Below the pieces are notes generated by a model. It worked only from the letters and a program-made list of their open reading frames with translations. It had not been told where the DNA came from and searched no databases. Positions 15,502 through 60,739 of a stretch of DNA of 64,000 bases are shown in pieces. Made by a program: the position numbers and the translations under genes. How positions within the stretch are numbered: the first letter of the stretch is position 1; each line of letters starts with the position of its first letter. Origin of the DNA: Octopus vulgaris (Eukaryota); NCBI GenBank assembly GCA_951406725.2, contig OX597832.1, forward strand, positions 31,124,001 through 31,188,000. Reading direction: 5' to 3'.

Positions 15502-16283
15502 ATACATACATAAATGGGAAGGCACATGGCTCAGTGGTTAGAGCATTGAGCTTACAATTGTGGGGTTGTGAGTTCGATTCCCGGACCACTCTGCATGTTG
15601 TGTTCTTGAGCAAGACACTTTATTTCACATTGCTCCAGTTCACTCAGCTATAGAAATGAGTTGCGACATCACAGGTGCCAAGCTGTATCGGCCCCTTTGC
15701 CTTTCCCTTGGATAACATTGGTGGTGTGGAGAGGGGAGGCTGGTATGCATGGGCGACTGCTGGTCTTCCATTAAAACAACCCTAGGTCGTGCATTTGCTG
15801 GTGAGGCAACTTTCTGCCCAGACTTATACCTTGGAGGGGATCCTCTTAGGTGTACCTATGGTCATTTGTGACCGACGGAGTCTCTATACATATATACTTG
15901 ACTGTCCATGACCCATTGTCTCATCAGTAGTTCAAGGAACCCGTGGTCCAATTTACATGAAACTTGTTTTATTGTGTTTGCATTCAGAGTATTTTCTCAT
16001 TATGCACTGGTTTGGCTGAATTAAATTACAGACAACCATGCAAGCATATATATATATATATACACACAAACAACATTGTGAATTAATGATCCAGAGAAGG
16101 AGTACTCAATACTGATGTAGAGCTCAGTAGTTTATTGGAGTCTCCTTAACATAATGTGTGTGTGTGTGTGTGTGTACATACACACACATCACTTTGTTAC
16201 ATTCTTAAAGTTCTATATTTAAAAGATGAAGAATTATGTACATTATTTACATTTGACGGATAATTGTCCTCTTGTTTGTTGTT

Positions 16284-16329
16284 AACACAATGTTTCAGCT
16301 GATATACCCTCCAGCCTTCATCAGGTGTC
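16284..16329 (-). ncRNA. Minimal hammerhead in a PLE-type repeat (~16190-16530)
   Basis: GACAC-CUGAUGA-a-GGCUG..CAGCU-GAAA-CA-UU-GUGUU. Stem III is probably a CpG-decayed AACGTT. Confidence 0.7.
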
Positions 16330-16623
16330 TTGGGTTTTCATCCCTTAGGTATTTTTCAATGTTATTATTATTATTATTATTATTCAGGTCACTGCCTGGA
16401 ATCAAACTCGGAATCTTGGGGTTAGTAGCCCGCACTCTTAACCACTACACCATGGGCAATTATGGAGTGAATTTTAGGGCTTATAAATCTAATATTTTCC
16501 TATCCTTCCTTAATACCGGTTCCCATATGCTGCTCATATCTGCACTCAGTCTGCTTAGGAAGTGGTTGTGTCCTAGCACGGAAAACGGACGTTAAACGAT
16601 GATGATGATGATGATTGTGTGTT

Positions 16624-28357: not shown

Positions 28358-28942
28358 GTACATATTATACTCTCAATCAAGTTTATCAGAGTTTTGAAAA
28401 AAATAAATAAAACAGTGAAAGACACAGATTTAACATTAAACTAAAGACAGTTGTTTTCTTGTTTTTAATTTTACATTCGTTGTATAAAAGTTATTGTTTC
28501 AACAGCCACAGCTATAAATATCAGTTAATTGGTGATCTCTACTGAATACGGTGTATTAAAAACTTATTTATTTACTGACTGAAATTTCTTTCAAAGTTGA
28601 AAAAGGGAATAAAAAGACAGAGAAAAAAAGATCCCCCTTGTGGCAACTGCTTGCAACTCTCAAGGTAAGGGGGAGATAATTTCAGGAATTTAGAAATTAA
28701 CCAAAGTTAATTTACATGCTTAGAGGAAATCTGATTATTGTTTGTGGGCAAGGAGGGACAACTATGGACATGTTTCAGTCTATTGGACCTCATCAGCATT
28801 GTATTGTATAACAAGATTGTTGTATCAGTTGACAAATATTTCTTTTCTTTTATGTATGTATGTGTAATGCACACATACCTGCATACATGCGTGCACACAT
28901 ACACTCACTCACACACACACACACACATACATACATGGAGCA

Positions 28943-34492: not shown

Positions 34493-34559
34493 CACACACA
34501 CACAATATATATATATATATATAAGGACTTTCTTAGAAGTTATTAACTATTCCAAAATA

Positions 34560-34990
34560 TTTTTGTAAAACAAAATTCCACGAAGTTTTAGGAAAGAAGT
34601 TTTCGTATTGTCTGTATTGTGTGTAAGCGCTTTCGCTATTCAGCTTTTCAAACACACGTATTTTGTGTTAATCTGTATAATGGACGCTGTTTCAAACGAC
34701 TTCCTCTATTCGAAATCTTCTTTCCAAAAGGTTCGTGGAATACTGCTTTTCTTGAAACCTTTTTAAATAGCGAATAAATTTTAAGAAAATCTTTCTTTAA
34801 ATATTGCGACTGTATCAAGTAGTTTTTGCAAAAATTTTATAATTCAAAAAGGTGCTGGAAAGCCCAGCACGTTACAAAATAGTTTGTGGTTGTATTTCTT
34901 GGTATTTATAACACCGATATCTAAGAGAGAATGGGTAGTTCCCATTTAGGTCTATCTACCAACTAAGGATGGTAAATAATGATGGATTGA
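34560..34990 (-). pseudogene. Possible highly decayed Penelope RT C-terminal fragment
   Basis: Frameshifted ELP..LDIGVIN resembles the PLE LPFLD motif; weak. Confidence 0.3.
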
Positions 34991-35227
34991 ACTACTGTTT
35001 TTTTTTTCTGAAGAGCTGGTATTTCAGTATGATTATGTAATAGTCTGTGTAATGATTGTAACACAACATACGTGTAGACGCTGTCGAAACACGTGTAAAT
35101 GGTATGTCATTTATGTCATGTTGAAGATTTTATCTAAATCTGTTTCATTCTCTTCTCGTATATGTATATACATACAATATATGTATAGTGTGTTTTGTGT
35201 GTTTGTGTGTGTGTGTAAATATATACT

Positions 35228-39802: not shown

Positions 39803-40399
39803 TACATACATACATACATACATACATACAAATAGAAAAAGGGGAGGGCTACCAATAGGATTCGAATCCCACATCTCTCATGAACATGACAAGCGTTCTA
39901 CTAGTTGATCATAATTAATATCCTTCGAGTTTCTTTCTCCGTGTTAGAAGCTCCATTCTTATAAACGAGAATTGTAAGTCTGTGATGTCATAAGAATTTA
40001 TAAACTTCAAGACAAGATGAATGCCTCCACGCACACACACATAGCCGCACTACCACACATGCATCACTCCTCCCTTATGCCTACATCCAGACACGGATGC
40101 AGTTTTATACGTGCATCCAAGCCTTACCTTTTTCCCTCTTTAACCTCCCCTCACCACCTAGAACAGCATATTCACCAAGAAACCCTCCACATATTTTTTT
40201 ATTCTTCTCACTGACTACTCTTCTTCCTCGTTCGTTGTATGACGACCGCCTTTCTTCTGGTGAAGAACTACTGTCCGAAACGTTAAGATACTTTCTCTTC
40301 TGCTAAAGCGTTAAACTAATGCCATGTTTGTCAAACTTTGTTTCTCCTGTGTTGTTCTTTATATTGCCCAATGTCTTTACAACATTATGATTATGTACG

Positions 40400-40507
<108 letters not shown>

Positions 40508-40594
40508 CATACATACATATGCTTACATACATACATACATACATATATATATATATACACACACACACACACGCATATATATATATATATATAT

Positions 40595-40649
<55 letters not shown>

Positions 40650-40688
40650 TATATATATATATACATATACATACATACGTATATACGG

Positions 40689-40723
<35 letters not shown>

Positions 40724-41469
40724 AAATCAATAATTATTGACTGATTGATTTCTCCATCAGGCTGTTATATACTTTTGAATCCACAAGGTAGTGTTTAGGT
40801 CAGAAACAAACACAACGACTGCTGTTTCTGTGGGATGGTGGTAATGGTGGTGGTGGTGTTGGTGGTGTTGGTGTTGGTGGTATTGGCGGTGATGGGTGCG
40901 TTAGCGGTGGTTAGGCGTTGACTACCCACATATTTTTATGACCAAAGGAAACAAAGACTGGTCTGGGGTAGTTTGGGGTGGTGGTTGGGGGTGGTGTCAA
41001 TGTTTTGGTGTTCTTCATGTCGTTTCTGGTAACACCCAGTGGCACGAGAGGGCGGGACTTTTATTGCTATTGTCGTTGTAATCGTCGGCGACCGTGACAA
41101 CAGTAAAGGTGGTAGTGGTGGTGGTAGTAGTTGTGGTAGTGGTGGTGGTTGTAGTGGTAGTAGTGGTGGTGGTAGTGGTGGTGATGGTGGTGAGGTGGTG
41201 GTAGTGATGGTGGTGGTGGTGGTAGTGGTGGCCGTAGTGGTAGTAGTGGTGTTGGTGTTGGTAGTAGCGGTGTTGGTAGTAGTAGTAGCAGCAGTAGCAG
41301 CAGTAGTAGTAGCAGCAGTAGTAGTAGCAGCAGTAGCAGCAGCAGCGGTGGTGGTGGTGGTGGTGCTAGTTGTAGAGGCAGCTTTTGCTTTTGCCCTCTT
41401 CGGTCTTTTTTTTCCTCCTTCTTTTCTGCTAAATACTTAACCTTTAAAGATTATCTGACTTTTGAGACT

Positions 41470-41589
41470 GGGTCACGGAAGTCACAGAGGTCACGAAGGT
41501 CACGGAGTCTCAAAGGTCACAAAGGTCAACACTGTGTGAGTATGTGAGGTGGGGCGGGGCGTGGGGGTGCTGTGAAATTAGCTATAAAA
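41470..41589 (+). promoter_or_regulatory. Candidate promoter: RGGTCA half-site array, GC box and TATA box
   Basis: Six RGGTCA-like hexamers at ~9-bp period (41470-41528), GGGGCGGGGC at 41551, TATAAAA at 41583. Confidence 0.35.
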
Positions 41590-41903
41590 TGGAAAATACT
41601 GGGAAATAGGTCCCAGTTAATGGTTATTACTTAGAGCTGTCCCCTTAAATATGGAAAACACCCAGCAACAGACTATCGCTCCCACCGTTTGTTACTTCTG
41701 GCACTCGTTTCCGTCATTGGACAACGGCCATGCTGGGGCAAAGCATCGAGGGGTCTTATGGAACAAATCGAACCTCGTACCTATTTCTTTAAATAATTGT
41801 TACTTATTCTATCAGTTTCTTTTGTCGAAGCGCTATGTCATGGGGACATTAACAAACCAGCAGCAGTTATCAAACGGTGATGGGGCACAAATCCGAACAC
41901 AAT

Positions 41904-41949
<46 letters not shown>

Positions 41950-42205
41950 TAGAAGAAATAAAGTACTCGGAAGTCTGGATGGTTTTATATTTACAGATTT
42001 TTATTAATATGTCACATGTTGTTATAAATCATATATTAGCGCTTGCGTTCACTCTAGTGGAATCTTCAGATCTGAAGTACCTTATTTCTTCTAATATACA
42101 ATACCTGTACGTCATCTCCAGACCTTCTAATATATTCATACACACACACACACACACGCATACATATATATATTGGCTAAACTGGCAAAATGACAATTCT
42201 GTAAT

Positions 42206-42271
<66 letters not shown>

Positions 42272-42684
42272 AAAAAATGAAGTTCGAAAATGCTGCTATA
42301 TTATACAATTTTTAATTTTTATATATACATTATAACATGTTTCAGTTCCTGAAATGAACCTTATCAAAAAAAGTTATATATAAAAAAAGATAGTTCATGC
42401 TATCAAATATAAGAAATTCATTTATAATACACAATGGAGTCAGACATCATACAGTACATATTTAGTTTGAAGTGAGTTCGTTCATGCTATATGTTTAAAG
42501 TGTATGATGCAGTGGTTCGTGGTGGTGATATATAAAAAAAATAGATCAAAGTGGTGGAATGCAGTCAAGATAAAAAATTGATGTTCCTGAAAGAGCGAGG
42601 GATTCATTTTTACCTTGAGCAACTGTGATGACCAATGGTGGGTGTTCGCTGGATGATTCTGGCGAATCTTGTGAATTGTTCGGG

Positions 42685-43119
42685 TTTTATAACACCTGTT
42701 AGATGGTCAGTCCAGCGTAGCGTGACGTCATCAACGTTTTGACCAATCGTTTCGTTAGGTGGCTTCGTCAAGCAGAACGGGACGTCATCAACATTCTGAC
42801 CAATCGTGACCTATCGCTGTATTATAACTGCCTCTTGTCTGTATCCTGTTTTGGCCAATCGTTTCATTAGGTGGCTTAGTCAAGCAGAACGGAACGTCAT
42901 CAAAATTCTGACCAATCACTACTTATAGCTGTATTAGGTCTGCCCCTTGTCTGTTTCTTGTTAGGTGACTAGTCAAGCAGAAAAGGACGTCATCAATATT
43001 CTGACTAATCTCTGCCCCTTGTCTGTATCCTGTCCAGTCTAGCAGAATTAGACGTCATCAACGTGTTGACCAATCAGAATCGGGTCTGACCCATAGCTGT
43101 ATCGTATGTGGTCAGTCCA
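42685..43119 (-). promoter_or_regulatory. Modular CRE+CCAAT repeat array with downstream TATA (putative PLE pseudo-LTR promoter)
   Basis: 25-bp repeat GACGTCATCAAnnnnnTGACCAATC at 42724, 42781, 42893, 42986 and 43051. TATAAAA on - at 42691-42685. Confidence 0.65.
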
Positions 43120-43265
43120 TCAGGGTTAGATTTGTACGAAGAAATCTTTTTATAAATTTTTTCCCCTTTTTTCCTAAGGCATATTTCCGTCAGTGCGAGT
43201 GACTGTTTAAGGTAGCGGCCGTGGTGGAATTTTGCTTCTCCTTTTCGGAAGACCTATCTTTTGTT

Positions 43266-44503
43266 TTAATATTCCTGGCCCAGGGTGTTTAAACTTGGTC
43301 TATATTTTTTTATGAAATACATTTCTTTATTTTGGCGTTGCGTGAAGGTTGCGTTGTCACTGAATTTATAGAGCGGGTTAGTTGTAAATTTCGGATTTAC
43401 ATTTCCAGCACATCTATCTATGTGTCCGCTGACCGGTATTTTCCGGTAATCAGGGTTTCTAATTTGTGATTTATGAACCGCCATCCTGTTACGTAAGCTA
43501 TTTTTTGTATGGCCTATATACTGCCTATTGCAGCCTGCGCATGTTATGACGTAAATTAAGTTTTCTGATGCGCAGGTGAAGTTTGTTCTAATGGTGAACT
43601 GGTGGCCTTGTTCCAGTATAAATTCTGATCCTTCTTTCAAGATGACACAGATTCCGCAGTTGGGTCTTCCACATTTTCTGACTGCTGGTGTTGTGGTTGA
43701 TGTTGAGTGCAGTGTAGCTTGGGTTAAAATCCTTTTCAAGGATTTTGGTTGCCGTTTACTTTTAATGATGGTGTGTGTTTCGAGGATCCGGTTCATCTTT
43801 GGGTCTCCCTTTAGTAGGGCTGTGCTTTGTAGTATGGTGTTGAAGGCCTCATTGTTGAGTGGGTTGTGTGTAGAGATGTAGGGAAGGGTTTTTAATTGCT
43901 CTTTCTTTTTTGGTTTTGTTTGTCTCAGGTCTTCTATACTTAATTTAAGTACCCGTTGTATTGCACTGTCTATTAGGGGCAGTGGATAGTTTCTATTTGT
44001 GAGTGTGGTTCTAAGTTCCTGGAGACGTGTGTGTCGGGTGTTTGTGTCTGATATTATGGTGCAAATCCTTCTAGCTAAACAAAAAGGGACATTCATTCTA
44101 GTGTGTCGTGGGTGGCATGAATCAAAGGGTAGGTACTGTTTGGAGTCTGTCGGTTTATAGTAGATATCTGTCTCTATTTTGTTGCCGGTTTTCTTAATGA
44201 GGATGTCTAAAAATGGTAATTCTTTTTCGTTGTGATCCATCGTGAATTGTATATTGTCATTTATTCCATTTAATAGTATTTTAAATTCCTCAAGTTTCTC
44301 TATACCTTTGTCCCAGATGATGAAACAGTCATCGAGGTATCTTTTCCAGTTGTTATGTATATAGGTGGCGAAGGTGTTTCCATATTTCTCGAGTGTTATC
44401 CGGTAGAGTATTTTCTCGAGGTATCCCATCACTAGGTTGGCAAAAGATGGTGCAGTACGCGTGCCCATCGCTGTTCCCGATCTTTGTCTGTAGAAATCAT
44501 TGT

Positions 44504-44507
<4 letters not shown>
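43266..44507 (-). CDS. PLE RT C-terminal half + Cys-rich linker + GIY-YIG endonuclease (open frame, N-terminally truncated)
   Basis: [61 protein letters not shown] and KEMYFI..PSLN. No stops over ~413 codons. Confidence 0.95.
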
Positions 44508-44569
<62 letters not shown>

Positions 44570-44690
44570 TCCTCTGTTTACGGAATTACTACTATTTGCG
44601 GTTGAAGCCCTGGCTGCTTTTTCTAGTGGGTCGAACGGCCTATTATGGCCGCTCCTCAATTTGTTATATATATATATATACATGCATATA

Positions 44691-44766
<76 letters not shown>

Positions 44767-44771
<5 letters not shown>

Positions 44772-45468
44772 CTCCTTTAGCTTTCAGAATTACTACTATT
44801 TTTGCGGTTTTGAGTTTGGCTGCTCTTTTCAAGTGAGTTGAACGACCTGTAAGGGTCATTCCTTAATACTTTTGAATATATTATATAGTCTGTGACTATT
44901 TCTATTTTCTCACTTGACCGCTGGTTGCAGAAAATTTTTCTTGAATTTTTCTTGAATTTTTTTTGCTACCCTATATTGATAAATTAATAATTTTTGACTA
45001 ATTCTGAAATTGTATCAGCAGTTTATATTTACTGCTGAGTAGTTGGCGCGTTTACGTTGGATTTCGAAAAATTAGGATATATACACTCGGGGCTTCAGTG
45101 GTGTCGCCTCGTGCGTATATGTTCTCCTTTTCTTTTGGTGACTTTGCTGATGAAACAAGCCAATCGTAAACGGATTTAATTTAATTTAATCAAGTTCGAT
45201 TGCGTAAAAATTGTTGAAACCTTGCAGGGTACAAAGTTGAAAGGGATAAATGTTTTTATTTCTCCTTTAGCTTTCATAATTACTACTATTTTTGCGGTTT
45301 TGAGTTTGGCTGCTCTTTTCAAGTGAGTTGAATGACCTGTAAGGGTCATTCCTTTTAATACTTTTGAATATATTATATAGTCTGTGACTATTTCTATTTT
45401 CTCACTTGACCGCTGGTTGCAGAAAATTTTTCTTGAATTTTTCTTGAATTTTTTTGCTACCCTATATT
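44767..45468. mobile_element. ~211-bp direct repeats (44767-44977, 45257-45468) flanking ~280 bp, within (TA)n
   Basis: Near-identical copies at 490-bp period, with a diverged relative at 44585-44660. Confidence 0.75.
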
Positions 45469-45479
45469 ATATATATATA

Positions 45480-45644
<165 letters not shown>

Positions 45645-46560
45645 TATGTGTATATATATATATATATATATAATATACTCTGCAGGTTTCTTTCAGTTTC
45701 TGTCGGCCAAATTCCCTCGCAAGGCATTGGTCAGTGCCTGGAAGAATAGCAGAAGGTAGTTGCCCAATTGTGCCGCACTGTGGGACAGAATCAAGTTCGG
45801 GAAGCGAGCTTCTTCGCGACACAGCAACGCCTGAGTCTATGAAAATTCTTCGTCACTCACTCTGTACCAGAAATACACTGGGGTGGGTGATACCAGTCAC
45901 ACTCATTCACTATACATCTGTACAGTGAGCGAGAGAGAGAGAGAGAGATAGAGAGGGGAGGAGAGAGAGATGGTGGGAGAGACAAGGAGAGGCGGTGAGG
46001 GGGAAGTGAGAGGTGAGTTAGGGGAGTTAAAGAACCACGAGTTCTAGGACGAAAGCCATCACTACTCTCTTCCCCCCCTCGCAGCAGCAGCAGATTGCAT
46101 TACGGTATACACACCCAACAGACGTAAATACCGATGGAGACGAGGTGTATACGCACATACATACATGCAGATATATACATACATACATACATACAATAAT
46201 ACATACACAAAAACATACATACATAATACATACATACATATATAGATACATACATACACACATACATACATACATACATACACACATACATACATATATA
46301 CATACATACATACATACAAACATACATACATGCATACATACATACATACACATACATACATACACACACATACATACATACATACATACATACATACATA
46401 CATACATACATACATACATACAAACATACATACATGCATACATACATACATACATACATACATACATACATACATACATACATACATACATACATACATA
46501 CATACATACATACATACATACACATACACACATACATACATACATACATACATACATACA

Positions 46561-46591
<31 letters not shown>

Positions 46592-47004
46592 TTACATACA
46601 TACAAACTTACATACATACATCTATACATACATATAAGTATGTATAGATGCATATGTGTACGTAAGTGCTTATGTGCGCGTGTGTGTGTATATATGTGTA
46701 TATGTATATATGTATGCACGTAAGTATATAATTATTGTATGTATGTATGTAGGTATGTATGTGTGTGTGTATATATTTTCTGTCGGTCCATTTGCTTACT
46801 AGCATACATGTACAGAGACATGCTTGGATATATTATATATTCTTGATCTTTTCTTCATTTGATTGCAGCCTAGCTGGAGCACCGCCTTTAGTCGAGCTAA
46901 TCGACCCCCAGGACTTATTCTGTGTAAGCCTAGTACTTTGGCCGAACCACTATGTTACGGAGACGTAGACACACCAGTATCGGTTGTCAAGCCATGTTAG
47001 GGGA

Positions 47005-47039
<35 letters not shown>

Positions 47040-47749
47040 TTTTTTAATTCATAAAAGAATATAAGGATAAAAATCACGTTAATGATTTGTTATCAAGTAG
47101 TCAACCATGCGTATATTTGACTGGAGTTTTTGGTAGTTCTTTTAAGGTGTCGTCCGTAAAAATGTTTTTGTTGCTTTTTAATTGTAATTGGTGTAAGATT
47201 GACTAATTAACGCTCACGCTCATAACAGAGACATTTGAGATAAGCTTTGCAATCCAGCCGTCCTTTGCAGACAGGATTCCGTCTTTCTGAACCGATCGAC
47301 TCTGAAGTGACTTTATATATATAACTGAACTGTGATTATGTATATCAGAAAAGACATATAAATAAGTCGAAGCAATTAGTTGGACTTTTACGGTTTTTAT
47401 AATCATTTATGTTATTTATATAATATTATGTTATATTCATAGTATTTAATGTAATATTGTGATATAAATAAATTATTGGATTGTCAATAGAATATCTCTA
47501 TATTTAATTCATCTTTATTATTGTATTATACCAATATTTATATGGTATCCAAAATATTTTCTGGCTGTGAAGAGAAGCGCCAGTCTTTGAGATGTGGTCC
47601 AGGCTATGCTAAATGTGGTTTTAGCAGGAGAGAGGTCTTCAATGATAATGAGCCCTTAAAATATGGAGCAATCGTTAGGGCTCTAGTTGTGGACATTTCA
47701 TGTTTAGGGGTCACATTTTGTTGATATTAGTAAGCTTTGTCATTATTGT

Positions 47750-48180
47750 TGTTGGAACCGGTAAGACTGGCCTCCACCCGATTTGGTTGGTGCCCTCCAG
47801 AACTTTGTTAATGGTGTCAGTGTTGTGAAGACTGGAAGCGTATGGACGAAGCATGGTCGGGGAAAGTTGAAGAAGGTTCAGAAGCAGGCTGCAGCATCCG
47901 CACCAGAATGGGTGTTCCTGGACGTGATGGCAGGTAAGATGTTGATGTATAGAAAAAAGAGTGAAGAGAATAAGACCGAACCCTGGGGTACACCAGGGTT
48001 GATAAAGTGTCGGGAGAGAAACTACTCCGTCAGCGCACGTCGAGATAGCGCGATCCGAGAGGAAGCTACCGATCCAAGGGATGGGAAATGTGTGAAGCCC
48101 TTGTGTGGGCAATTACGACAGCATTTTGCATGCGAGACAAGGTTGAAAAGCTCTGTTGATGTCAAGCGTGACGACAGTGT
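47750..48180 (-). pseudogene. Degenerate CR1/Jockey-group LINE RT fragment
   Basis: LDINRAF, WIGSFLSDRAISTCADG and a frameshifted GVPQGS. Confidence 0.75.
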
Positions 48181-48434: not shown

Positions 48435-49182
48435 AAATTAACAGGATGAGATAAAAATCCAAGGCTGTGAAAGATGTCAGAACATTTATTAAGAGGCCTT
48501 ACACCTGTTTCCGGGATATTTTATATATCCCTCCATCGGAGACGGTGCGAGAAAATGGTTAGGCAATAGTTATTCTAGAGAAGATATGAAACAGAGAGTG
48601 AAGAGGTGGAATGAAAACAGACGTGAGATATGCAGGGATATTGTGTCTGCAGTTCCATTATTTAGGCAGAATGGTATACATAAAAGATTCCTGTACCTTG
48701 TGAGTAAGTTCCAATAGTATTTAAAATTGGTCATTCCAAGCATAGAGTTTGTAAACCATTCTACTTAAATAATGGAACTGCAGATACAACATCCCTGCAT
48801 ATCTCACGTCTGTTTTCATTCCTCCACTTCACTCTCTTTTTCATATCTTCTCTAGAATAACTATTGCTTAACCATTTTCTCACACTGTCTCTGATGAAGG
48901 GATATATAAAATATCCCCGAAACAGCTGTAAGACCTTCTATTTATAAATGTTCTGAAATCTTTCACAGCCTTGAATTTTTATCTCTATCTGTTAATTTTT
49001 TTATATATATATGCATGCTAATATGTGACATACGTTGGACTCCTCATTCGCATAATCATAATAATCGATTATGCGAATGAGGAGTCCAACGTAGGTCATA
49101 TACGAATGAGGAGCTTAACTATGGTCTGTCCATAGCACTTACTCAGCATTACCTGACACCTTTGGGTCTCACTGACACCATT
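48434..49182. mobile_element. Fold-back PLE-type element, same family as 32485-33030; HHR at 48887-48934 (+)
   Basis: ~245-bp inverted arms. Reads GUCU-CUGAUGA-a-GGGAUAU..AUAUCCC-c-GAAA-C AGCU G-UA-AGAC. Extra palindrome at ~49027-49098 and the shared tail. Confidence 0.87.
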
Positions 49183-60337: not shown

Positions 60338-60739
60338 CAATTTGTGTTGCAAGATTCCTGATGTGAAATCGTGTGTCGAAACTGATATTGTTGTATTTCG
60401 GGATGGTCATTTTTTTTTGCCAAATAAACACACACGCACTATATATTCTATATATTTTCTCTCCACTCGTTTATTACTATTCTTATTTTATTATGTTAAC
60501 TCATGTCCAGAGCTTCGTGAGACCACTGCAGAGACGCTTCCGGAAAAAAAATTCAGTAACCGTTGGAAAACCGATTATAGCAGTGACTCGATCAATTCCT
60601 AGCGATATCTGAAGAAGGAATTTTTGTATTCCGAAATATTATTATTATTATATCAGACTATGAACAATTAAATTATAACAGTTATAATATTGCACTCTGC
60701 ATTGTTGTGTCATTCAAGACACGTTATATTTTAGGGAGA

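Follow-up and report, generated by a model that had tools for sequence, protein, structure and literature searches.

What are five repeats, each joining a CRE word to a CCAAT box, doing between the reading frame and the 3' end of an octopus Penelope-like element (PLE)? The element lies on the minus strand, at about 44507-42268, of the window, by which we mean the entire 64-kb stretch of Octopus vulgaris DNA that was analyzed. An earlier note on this DNA had read the repeats as shuffled promoter modules of retroviral U3 character, followed on the element strand by a TATA box and a hammerhead-like motif, within the pseudo-LTR (pLTR) of a PLE.

The octopus element and its repeat array

The element has a (TA)n tract at each end (42213-42267 at the 3' end; 44508-44568 at the truncated 5' end, a likely insertion target), in keeping with the (TA)n insertion of the Neptune clade. 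Its 5'-truncated ORF (43266-44507, minus strand) keeps 411 open codons and ends in a TAA stop at 43268-43266. The ORF encodes RT motifs 4-7 and the thumb, a CX4CxxC linker, and a GIY-YIG endonuclease with CCHH, and the RT, with YLDD in frame, runs into the C-terminal GIY-YIG domain in a single frame as in EN+ PLEs. The endonuclease matches PF01541 above the cut-off (E = 9.8e-7); the truncated ORF query itself has no RT match in Pfam, but its homologs do have PF00078. The closest protein, which is named Octopus vulgaris, is 91% identical over 55% of the query, and many further relatives with PF00078 are 42-58% identical. Across 25 aligned sequences the CCHH residues of the endonuclease (C321, C324, H343, and H360) and the cysteines between RT and endonuclease (C277, C282, and C285) are invariant, the latter fitting the CX2-5CxxC linker that is common to Neptune and Nematis (PMC8557442). 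By the marks described in PMC8557442, and not by RT phylogeny with named references, we classify the element as a 5'-truncated Neptune-type PLE.

The copy under study is solo and truncated, and there is no other PLE coding copy within the 64-kb window. In four of 30 relatives' contigs, a second copy of the 3' segment does precede the ORFs, with the ORF1 methionine about 100-210 nt past the hammerhead, an arrangement that could also be produced by tandem-array assembly. A true retroviral LTR or U3 is rejected, as this is a GIY-YIG element with no second repeat and with no AATAAA on the element strand in 42268-43265, while the pLTR of a PLE is borne out by the RT/GIY-YIG ORF, the CCHH residues, and the hammerhead at the 3' end. 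Directly upstream of the truncated ORF, short elements are nested in TA tracts (44569-44664 and 44756-45467): one unit of roughly 490 bp, of which a 217-nt part recurs at 97% identity, and a related piece of 95 bp (85%), with a small hairpin each.

The array itself consists of five ACGTCA-N12-C(C/T)AAT modules with plus-strand starts at 42724, 42781, 42893, 42986, and 43051. The fixed distance from CRE to CCAAT and the spacings of 57, 112, 93, and 65 bp stand as the earlier note gave them; its 25-bp unit length does not, for the conserved part measures 41-44 bp inside a unit of 55-112 bp that comprises leader, CRE, 12-nt spacer, CCAAT, and two tail blocks. ACGTCA-N12-CCAAT has four matches in the 64-kb window, all of them inside the array (0.05 per shuffle, maximum 1, n = 100), and in one of the five modules (unit 4, at 43005) CTAAT replaces CCAAT. 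The bZIP word and the CCAAT box keep to the same side with a 12-nt gap in all five units; the published 10-12 bp may follow another measuring convention. Only module 1 has a full TGACGTCA, the remaining four CREs being half-sites, and module 3 reads AACGTCA in the copy under study, with a G at that position in most of the depth of three other runs.

On the plus strand, unit 1 (42698-42752) has a leader including the left copy of TGGTCAGTCCA, the full TGACGTCA at 42723, and CCAAT at 42743. Unit 2 (42753-42864) has a leader, GACGTCA at 42781, CCAAT at 42800, both tail blocks, and an orphan CCAAT at 42855, and unit 3 (42865-42958) a leader, AACGTCA at 42893, CCAAT at 42912, and both tail blocks. 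Unit 4 (42959-43030) has a leader and GACGTCA at 42986 before its CTAAT and lacks one tail block, whereas unit 5 (43031-43122) has only a partial leader, with GACGTCA at 43051 and CCAAT at 43070. The earlier note saw the array as bracketed by TGGTCAGTCCA, and both copies are indeed present (42704 and 43109), but the left one is module 1's own leader. The right copy (43109-43119, plus strand) is likely to be the leader remnant of a further truncated unit. The bracket as a target duplication is ruled out, since it aligns with the unit leader.

All spacer sub-blocks that had been named in the region are found in the array, and their order is identical in all five aligned units. The units differ by deletions and by one 112-bp tandem duplication, visible as 86% identity between 42736-42850 and 42848-42962. 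Growth of the array was thus collinear, through tandem duplication and deletion of a single unit. The module pattern has no match in viral contigs, and there is no protein relative among 46 candidate stretches there. One relaxed ACGTCA-N12-CTAAT match lies outside the element, beyond the TA tract (42109-42131), and is probably due to chance.

CRE words and hammerheads in related elements

We compared the element with 86 related loci, 80 from metagenomes and 6 in genome bins (presumably host DNA), of which 39 reach the protein end, 35 have at least 150 nt beyond it, and 30 remain after removal of near-duplicates. In the first 300 nt from the stop, TGACGT occurs on either strand 69 times in 18 of the 30 loci, compared to 4.5 times in shuffles (maximum 12, n = 300) and to a density of 0.28 per kb in the relatives' ORFs, and GACGTC and ACGTCA are the top-ranked 6-mers of this segment. 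CCAAT (15 versus 16.2 expected) and TATAAA (26 versus 24.3) are not enriched in the 30 relatives. A hammerhead filter was passed by 23 of the 30 (dropped were L013, L014, L024, L026, L030, L031, and L081). Counting palindromes once and excluding the stop codon, we find 51 CRE half-sites in the 3,230 nt between stop and hammerhead, spread over 17 of the 23 loci (3.4 in shuffles, maximum 9, n = 500), and a single one in the 3,809 nt downstream of the hammerhead. Their orientation is balanced (19 forward, 23 reverse, and 9 full), and their number per relative ranges from 0 to 12, the half-site being absent in 6 of the 23 hammerhead-bearing relatives. The 17 CRE-bearing loci are not independent events because the relatives are kin.

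In none of the 86 loci is there DNA alignable to the octopus array. The CRE-CCAAT composite is family-specific, because an ACGTCA-N10-14-CCAAT pair occurs in just 3 of the 86. As read from these sequences, then, the CRE cluster is a trait of the post-stop segment across the clade, and the fixed pairing with CCAAT is the octopus family's own. Three relatives (L014, L026, and L027) have paired CCAAT words and no CRE half-site near the stop, which suggests a second promoter vocabulary in the clade; L027 is among the six hammerhead-bearing loci that lack a half-site.

Two other features of the relatives are recorded here. In 14 of the 16 relatives with more than 200 open codons upstream of RT motif 4, an ORF1 of at least 100 codons overlaps RT-EN in a -1 relation (L003, L004, L005, L012, L022, L024, L025, L026, L041, L043, L048, L049, L085, and L086), and the overlap contains a slippery heptamer in 11 relatives, which is U UUU UUA in 9 of them; such a frameshifted ORF1 is likely known, because the Fig. 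1 legend of PMC8557442 names it. The PLE sequences L081-L086, P0014, and P0092 come from genome bins with bacterial labels in animal-associated samples and are likely host contamination.

The CRE word is constant across elements whose proteins are only about 40% identical. It is fixed while the adjoining hammerhead stems covary freely, as would be expected if a sequence-specific protein binds it. That protein might be the element's own: the TGACGT repeats could be recognized by ORF1 or RT-EN on RNA or DNA, or belong to an RNA fold, and would then only look like CREs. The words do adjoin the hammerhead in the relatives, inverted pairs able to close hairpins occur in L008, L010, L019, and L029, and the octopus array folds better on the element strand (z = -2.66, with 0 of 100 shuffles as good) than on the opposite strand (z = -0.97). 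However, 3 of 60 repeat-preserving controls compare with the fold of the array, and its single units fold at chance level (z from -1.54 to +0.99). All half-sites of the octopus family point in one direction, and five loci likewise show a single orientation. The constancy of the word across such diverged proteins also argues against a partner encoded by the element, and the one tested PLE needs the first 172 nt of its ORF, not the full pLTR, as template (PMC11167929). We therefore consider sites for the element's own proteins or RNA fold unlikely, and favor host factors.

A minimal type I hammerhead-like motif with an imperfect helix I lies at 42316-42386 on the minus strand. The UUGAUAA...UU motif reported at about 42367-42334 is exact, from U3 at 42367 to U17 at 42334. 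Its core comprises U3-U-G-A-U-A8-A9 (42367-42361), a 5-bp stem II with a G-U first pair, GAAA, and the palindrome ACAUGU (42340-42335), with a predicted cut after U17. The minimal type I core is thus present (paired 3:8, G12-A13-A14, A15.1-U16.1, palindromic 15.2-16.2, and H17), while G10.1-C11.1 and a contiguous helix I of 4-5 bp are absent, replaced by a G-U pair and two U-U mismatches; a G-U or unpaired 10.1 is also common among the relatives. Stem I, described before as poor, does have the two U-U mismatches near the core, but beyond a bulge it continues as an AU-rich helix with 11 further AU pairs, for a total of 16. Scored with a model built from the 23 relatives, the motif itself excluded, it reaches 25.1 bits (E about 0.01, a rough value), the third of 14 matches in the window. 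No hammerhead family is among the 73 Rfam matches for 40000-48000, which are microsatellite-driven.

The 3:8 pair is matched in 23 of 23 relatives (20 C:G and 3 U:A), and positions 3 and 8 had been left free by the filter; the covariation of stem I and palindrome, in turn, is by construction, because both were filter criteria. The U3:A8 reported for the octopus motif is therefore a real matched pair, shared with 3 of the 23 relatives, and its loci fall at three places on a quick tree (L012 with L020; L082; the octopus element). The motif might still be a decayed C3:G8 ribozyme private to the copy under study, as the stem I mismatches and the G-U in place of G10.1-C11.1 would suggest. In addition, an alternative fold that hides the cut site (-11.3 kcal/mol) is favored by 4.2 kcal/mol over the hammerhead fold (-7.1 kcal/mol), although the active dimer is beyond the folding program. 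We regard decay as improbable, for the changes at U3 and A8 are compensatory, a mismatched 3:8 pair occurs in no locus, and U3:A8 recurs in the relatives and in a second motif of the window (34651). Moreover, positions 42334-42367, a well-covered bin, are untouched in other copies by any substitution among the 40 of 104 variant rows listed and by any of the 4 indels listed. The structural predictions nevertheless leave the activity of the hammerhead in the copy under study doubtful. Weak, dimer-only cleavage has been published for PLE hammerheads (PMC4209133), and in an anole PLE cleavage is dispensable for insertion in vitro (PMC11167929).

The window has further hammerhead-like motifs. A short remnant at 34520-35000 (minus strand) ends in a TA tract and carries the second U3:A8 hammerhead (34618-34658, 28.9 bits, 6-bp stem I). 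It has GGTGTTATAAA in common with the TATA context of the octopus pLTR (two occurrences in the window), about 260 nt before the ribozyme. Homology between the two is ruled out (score 23, equalled in 96 of 200 shuffles). At 1740-2190, a short AT-rich element forms a head-to-head inverted pair between TA tracts that looks like an inverted pLTR, each arm having a C3:G8 hammerhead (1932-1985, minus; 2025-2078, plus). Four more C3:G8 motifs (28760-28803, minus; 48884-48937, plus; 16282-16331, minus; and near 60609, plus) have no PLE coding remnant detected in their vicinity and lack CRE half-sites in the 450-470 nt that were examined.

Apparent constraint on the modules and a candidate start site

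Parts of the element are present in 20 of the 24 runs listed. Four runs were compared over 42270-43700, namely three contig sets (1,317, 1,006, and 124 pieces) and the raw-read run X21, whose 3 reads are all less than 90% alike and uninformative; run X7, whose RNA nature is a guess, was kept out of expression evidence. The three contig sets cover 30 of 30 bins, so the array, the TATA box, and the hammerhead belong to the family and not to a single copy; the check proposed in the earlier note, whether other copies have the array, thus finds the whole region present. Among the 24 of 2,455 pieces listed, one spans modules 3-4 (163 nt, 20 differences), one modules 4-5 (136 nt, 10 differences), and one runs from module 2 to the leader of module 3 (115 nt, 3 differences), all without a gap, and even copies that diverge by as much as 12% retain the module spacing. 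The 5 joints listed include no deletion of 57, 65, 93, or 112 nt. In one contig, 345 nt are skipped between the middle of the array and the end of the ORF, and the loose ends at 42765-42767, 42876, and 42957 (among 18 of 243 listed) are diverged junction variants. With gap-free spanning pieces and no module-sized joint among those listed, ongoing shuffling is not supported, and with block order constant across units as well, the idea that the modules evolve by shuffling lacks support. Short contigs are compatible with the existence of copies having fewer modules.

Within the copy under study, mismatches to the column majority of the five units are rarer in core cells (1 of 55) than in other cells (19 of 140; p = 0.016); the contrast in invariant columns is weaker (10 of 11 in the core versus 16 of 28 elsewhere, p = 0.06). 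The CpG of the CRE is retained in five of five units, and three neighboring CpG positions in 2, 3, and 2 of five. Among the 40 of 104 variant rows listed from other copies, 12 fall inside the array and none of these touches an ACGTCA or CCAAT core; none in this listing touches the TATA or a module core, and the ribozyme has none of the 4 indels listed. The modules thus look selected as protein-binding sites. Alternatively, at most one ancestral CRE-CCAAT promoter matters, and the other four modules are neutral products of slippage or template jumps. The simple deletions and single duplication by which the units differ would fit such an origin, recent duplication alone keeps units alike, and the relatives work with anything from no half-site to a dozen. 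Summed contig depth over modules 1-2 is also about ten times that of module 3, a figure that is not a copy number. Neutrality does not account for cores that are better retained than spacers in all five units, or for module spacing kept in diverged copies among the pieces listed, and we think it quite unlikely; selection on the modules as binding sites is the reading that we carry forward.

Candidate partners can be named for both halves of the module. RRCCAATSR is the NF-Y consensus, and 6 of its 8 matches in the 64-kb window lie within 42630-43068. The extended half-site TGATGACGT could fit not only CREB but also factors of the ATF2/ATF7/Jun or XBP1 type, which makes cAMP one of several options. 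The ER stress element (ERSE) has the consensus CCAAT-N9-CCACG; it is ruled out here, with no match on either strand.

On the element strand a TATAAAA is present at 42691 (42685-42691), as the earlier note had it. It is not unique, because the 3' region has three such words (0.19 per shuffle), and a plus-strand TATAAAT lies at 43151. From spacing only, this TATAAAA predicts a start near 42660, which would place the full CRE at about -65 and the nearest CCAAT at about -85. In the published systems, CCAAT boxes of either orientation are found some 80 bp before the start site, and AP-1 or E-box motifs precede CCAAT by 10-12 bp, particularly in LTRs (PMC3730095, PMC7793273). The predicted 5' leader ahead of the ribozyme (42387-42660, minus strand) does not fold unusually well (z = -0.84). 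There is no support for an intron between the TATA box and the hammerhead: there is a donor-like site near 42613, the obvious acceptor is changed in other copies, and no splice joint is listed. A bidirectional or mainly antisense promoter, firing from the plus-strand TATAAAT into the ORF and yielding antisense RNA for silencing or as template, would suit modules that read CRE then CCAAT on the plus strand with TATAAAT 81 nt past the last CCAAT, and bidirectional pLTR promoters have been proposed for rotifer PLEs (PMC3846280), but we judge it very unlikely given the textbook distances of the minus-strand TATA to the full CRE and nearest CCAAT and, in the relatives, a CRE cluster that, read in the sense direction, immediately precedes hammerhead and ORF1.

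Based on these data, we propose, with a probability of roughly 60%, that the five modules are the upstream promoter or enhancer of the pLTR, read by host CREB/ATF-type bZIP proteins and NF-Y and directing a start near 42660. These proteins would occupy the five CRE-CCAAT modules, RNA would start on the element strand ahead of the hammerhead, and the hammerhead would cut only as a dimer. In a head-to-tail tandem, the 3' segment of the upstream copy would provide both the promoter and the 5' leader for the copy that follows, with its ORF1, -1 frameshift, and RT-EN. This tandem role is inferred from known PLE biology, in which a copy takes its promoter and leader from the 3' segment of the copy before it (PMC2377424, PMC6765202). 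In the solo truncated copy, the promoter could fire only into flanking DNA.

Comparison with known systems

Parts of this proposal are already published, namely a promoter together with a hammerhead in the pLTR, read-through into flanking DNA, and U3:A8 (PMC2377424, PMC4209133). The addition made here, on the evidence of sequence comparison, is the clade-wide CRE cluster in Neptune-type pLTRs and its five-fold CRE-CCAAT expansion in the octopus. Full-text searches of open papers, with the matches judged by title or abstract, turned up no account of CRE clusters in pLTRs of this kind; the supplements of Craig et al. may have one. A tentative extension, which we think has the odds against it, is that Neptune-type PLEs of marine invertebrates have an overlooked upstream promoter driven by CREB/ATF, convergent with U3 and unlike that of Drosophila Penelope, and that in the octopus a five-fold bZIP/NF-Y enhancer in many copies makes the element and the flanks of solo pLTRs inducible by cAMP or stress, for example in active neurons. 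A CRE word fixed at one position amid such diverged proteins points to a candidate host regulator of a widespread clade, and a signal-responsive cassette on a high-copy element would bear on claims of transposon activity in cephalopod tissue.

The closest functional precedent is the Penelope pLTR of Drosophila virilis, which is both required and sufficient for expression and is able to drive genes downstream of it (Schostak et al. 2008, PMC2377424). As proposed for the octopus element, its promoter sits in the 3' segment, which doubles as the 5' region of the following copy in a tandem. That promoter, the only dissected PLE promoter that we found in the literature, is internal and TATA-less (PMC2377424) and comes with an intron, whereas the octopus motifs suggest an upstream, TATA-containing layout.

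For the arrangement of the modules, the nearest likeness is to the composites of NF-Y with bZIP or E-box sites in mammalian promoters and ERV LTRs such as LTR12 (PMC3730095, PMC7793273), where a bZIP-type word also lies 5' of CCAAT at a fixed distance and tandem CCAAT-containing repeats also stand in the regulatory region of a retroelement. The comparison is an analogy only, as the pLTR is not a true LTR and the mollusc case comes from sequence.

The octopus ribozyme resembles the minimal PLE hammerheads of PMC4209133 in being type I, with a palindromic 15.2-16.2 and predicted dimer-only cleavage, and in the U3-A8 covariation, which was published for Cercyon of Schistosoma mansoni (Cervera and De la Pena 2014, PMC4209133) and has about 1,300 matches there. 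It differs in having no extra base between 9 and 10.1, a G-U for G10.1-C11.1, and an interrupted proximal helix I.

Lastly, with Neptune/Nematis-type EN+ PLEs (Craig et al. 2021, PMC8557442) the element has in common its RT, CX2-5CxxC linker, and CCHH GIY-YIG endonuclease, a hammerhead close to the 3' end, and (TA)n targets. It stands apart in the length of the stretch from stop to hammerhead, 898 nt compared to 61-303 nt in the hammerhead-bearing relatives (median 145, n = 23), and the five-fold CRE-CCAAT array is found on the octopus side of the comparison only.
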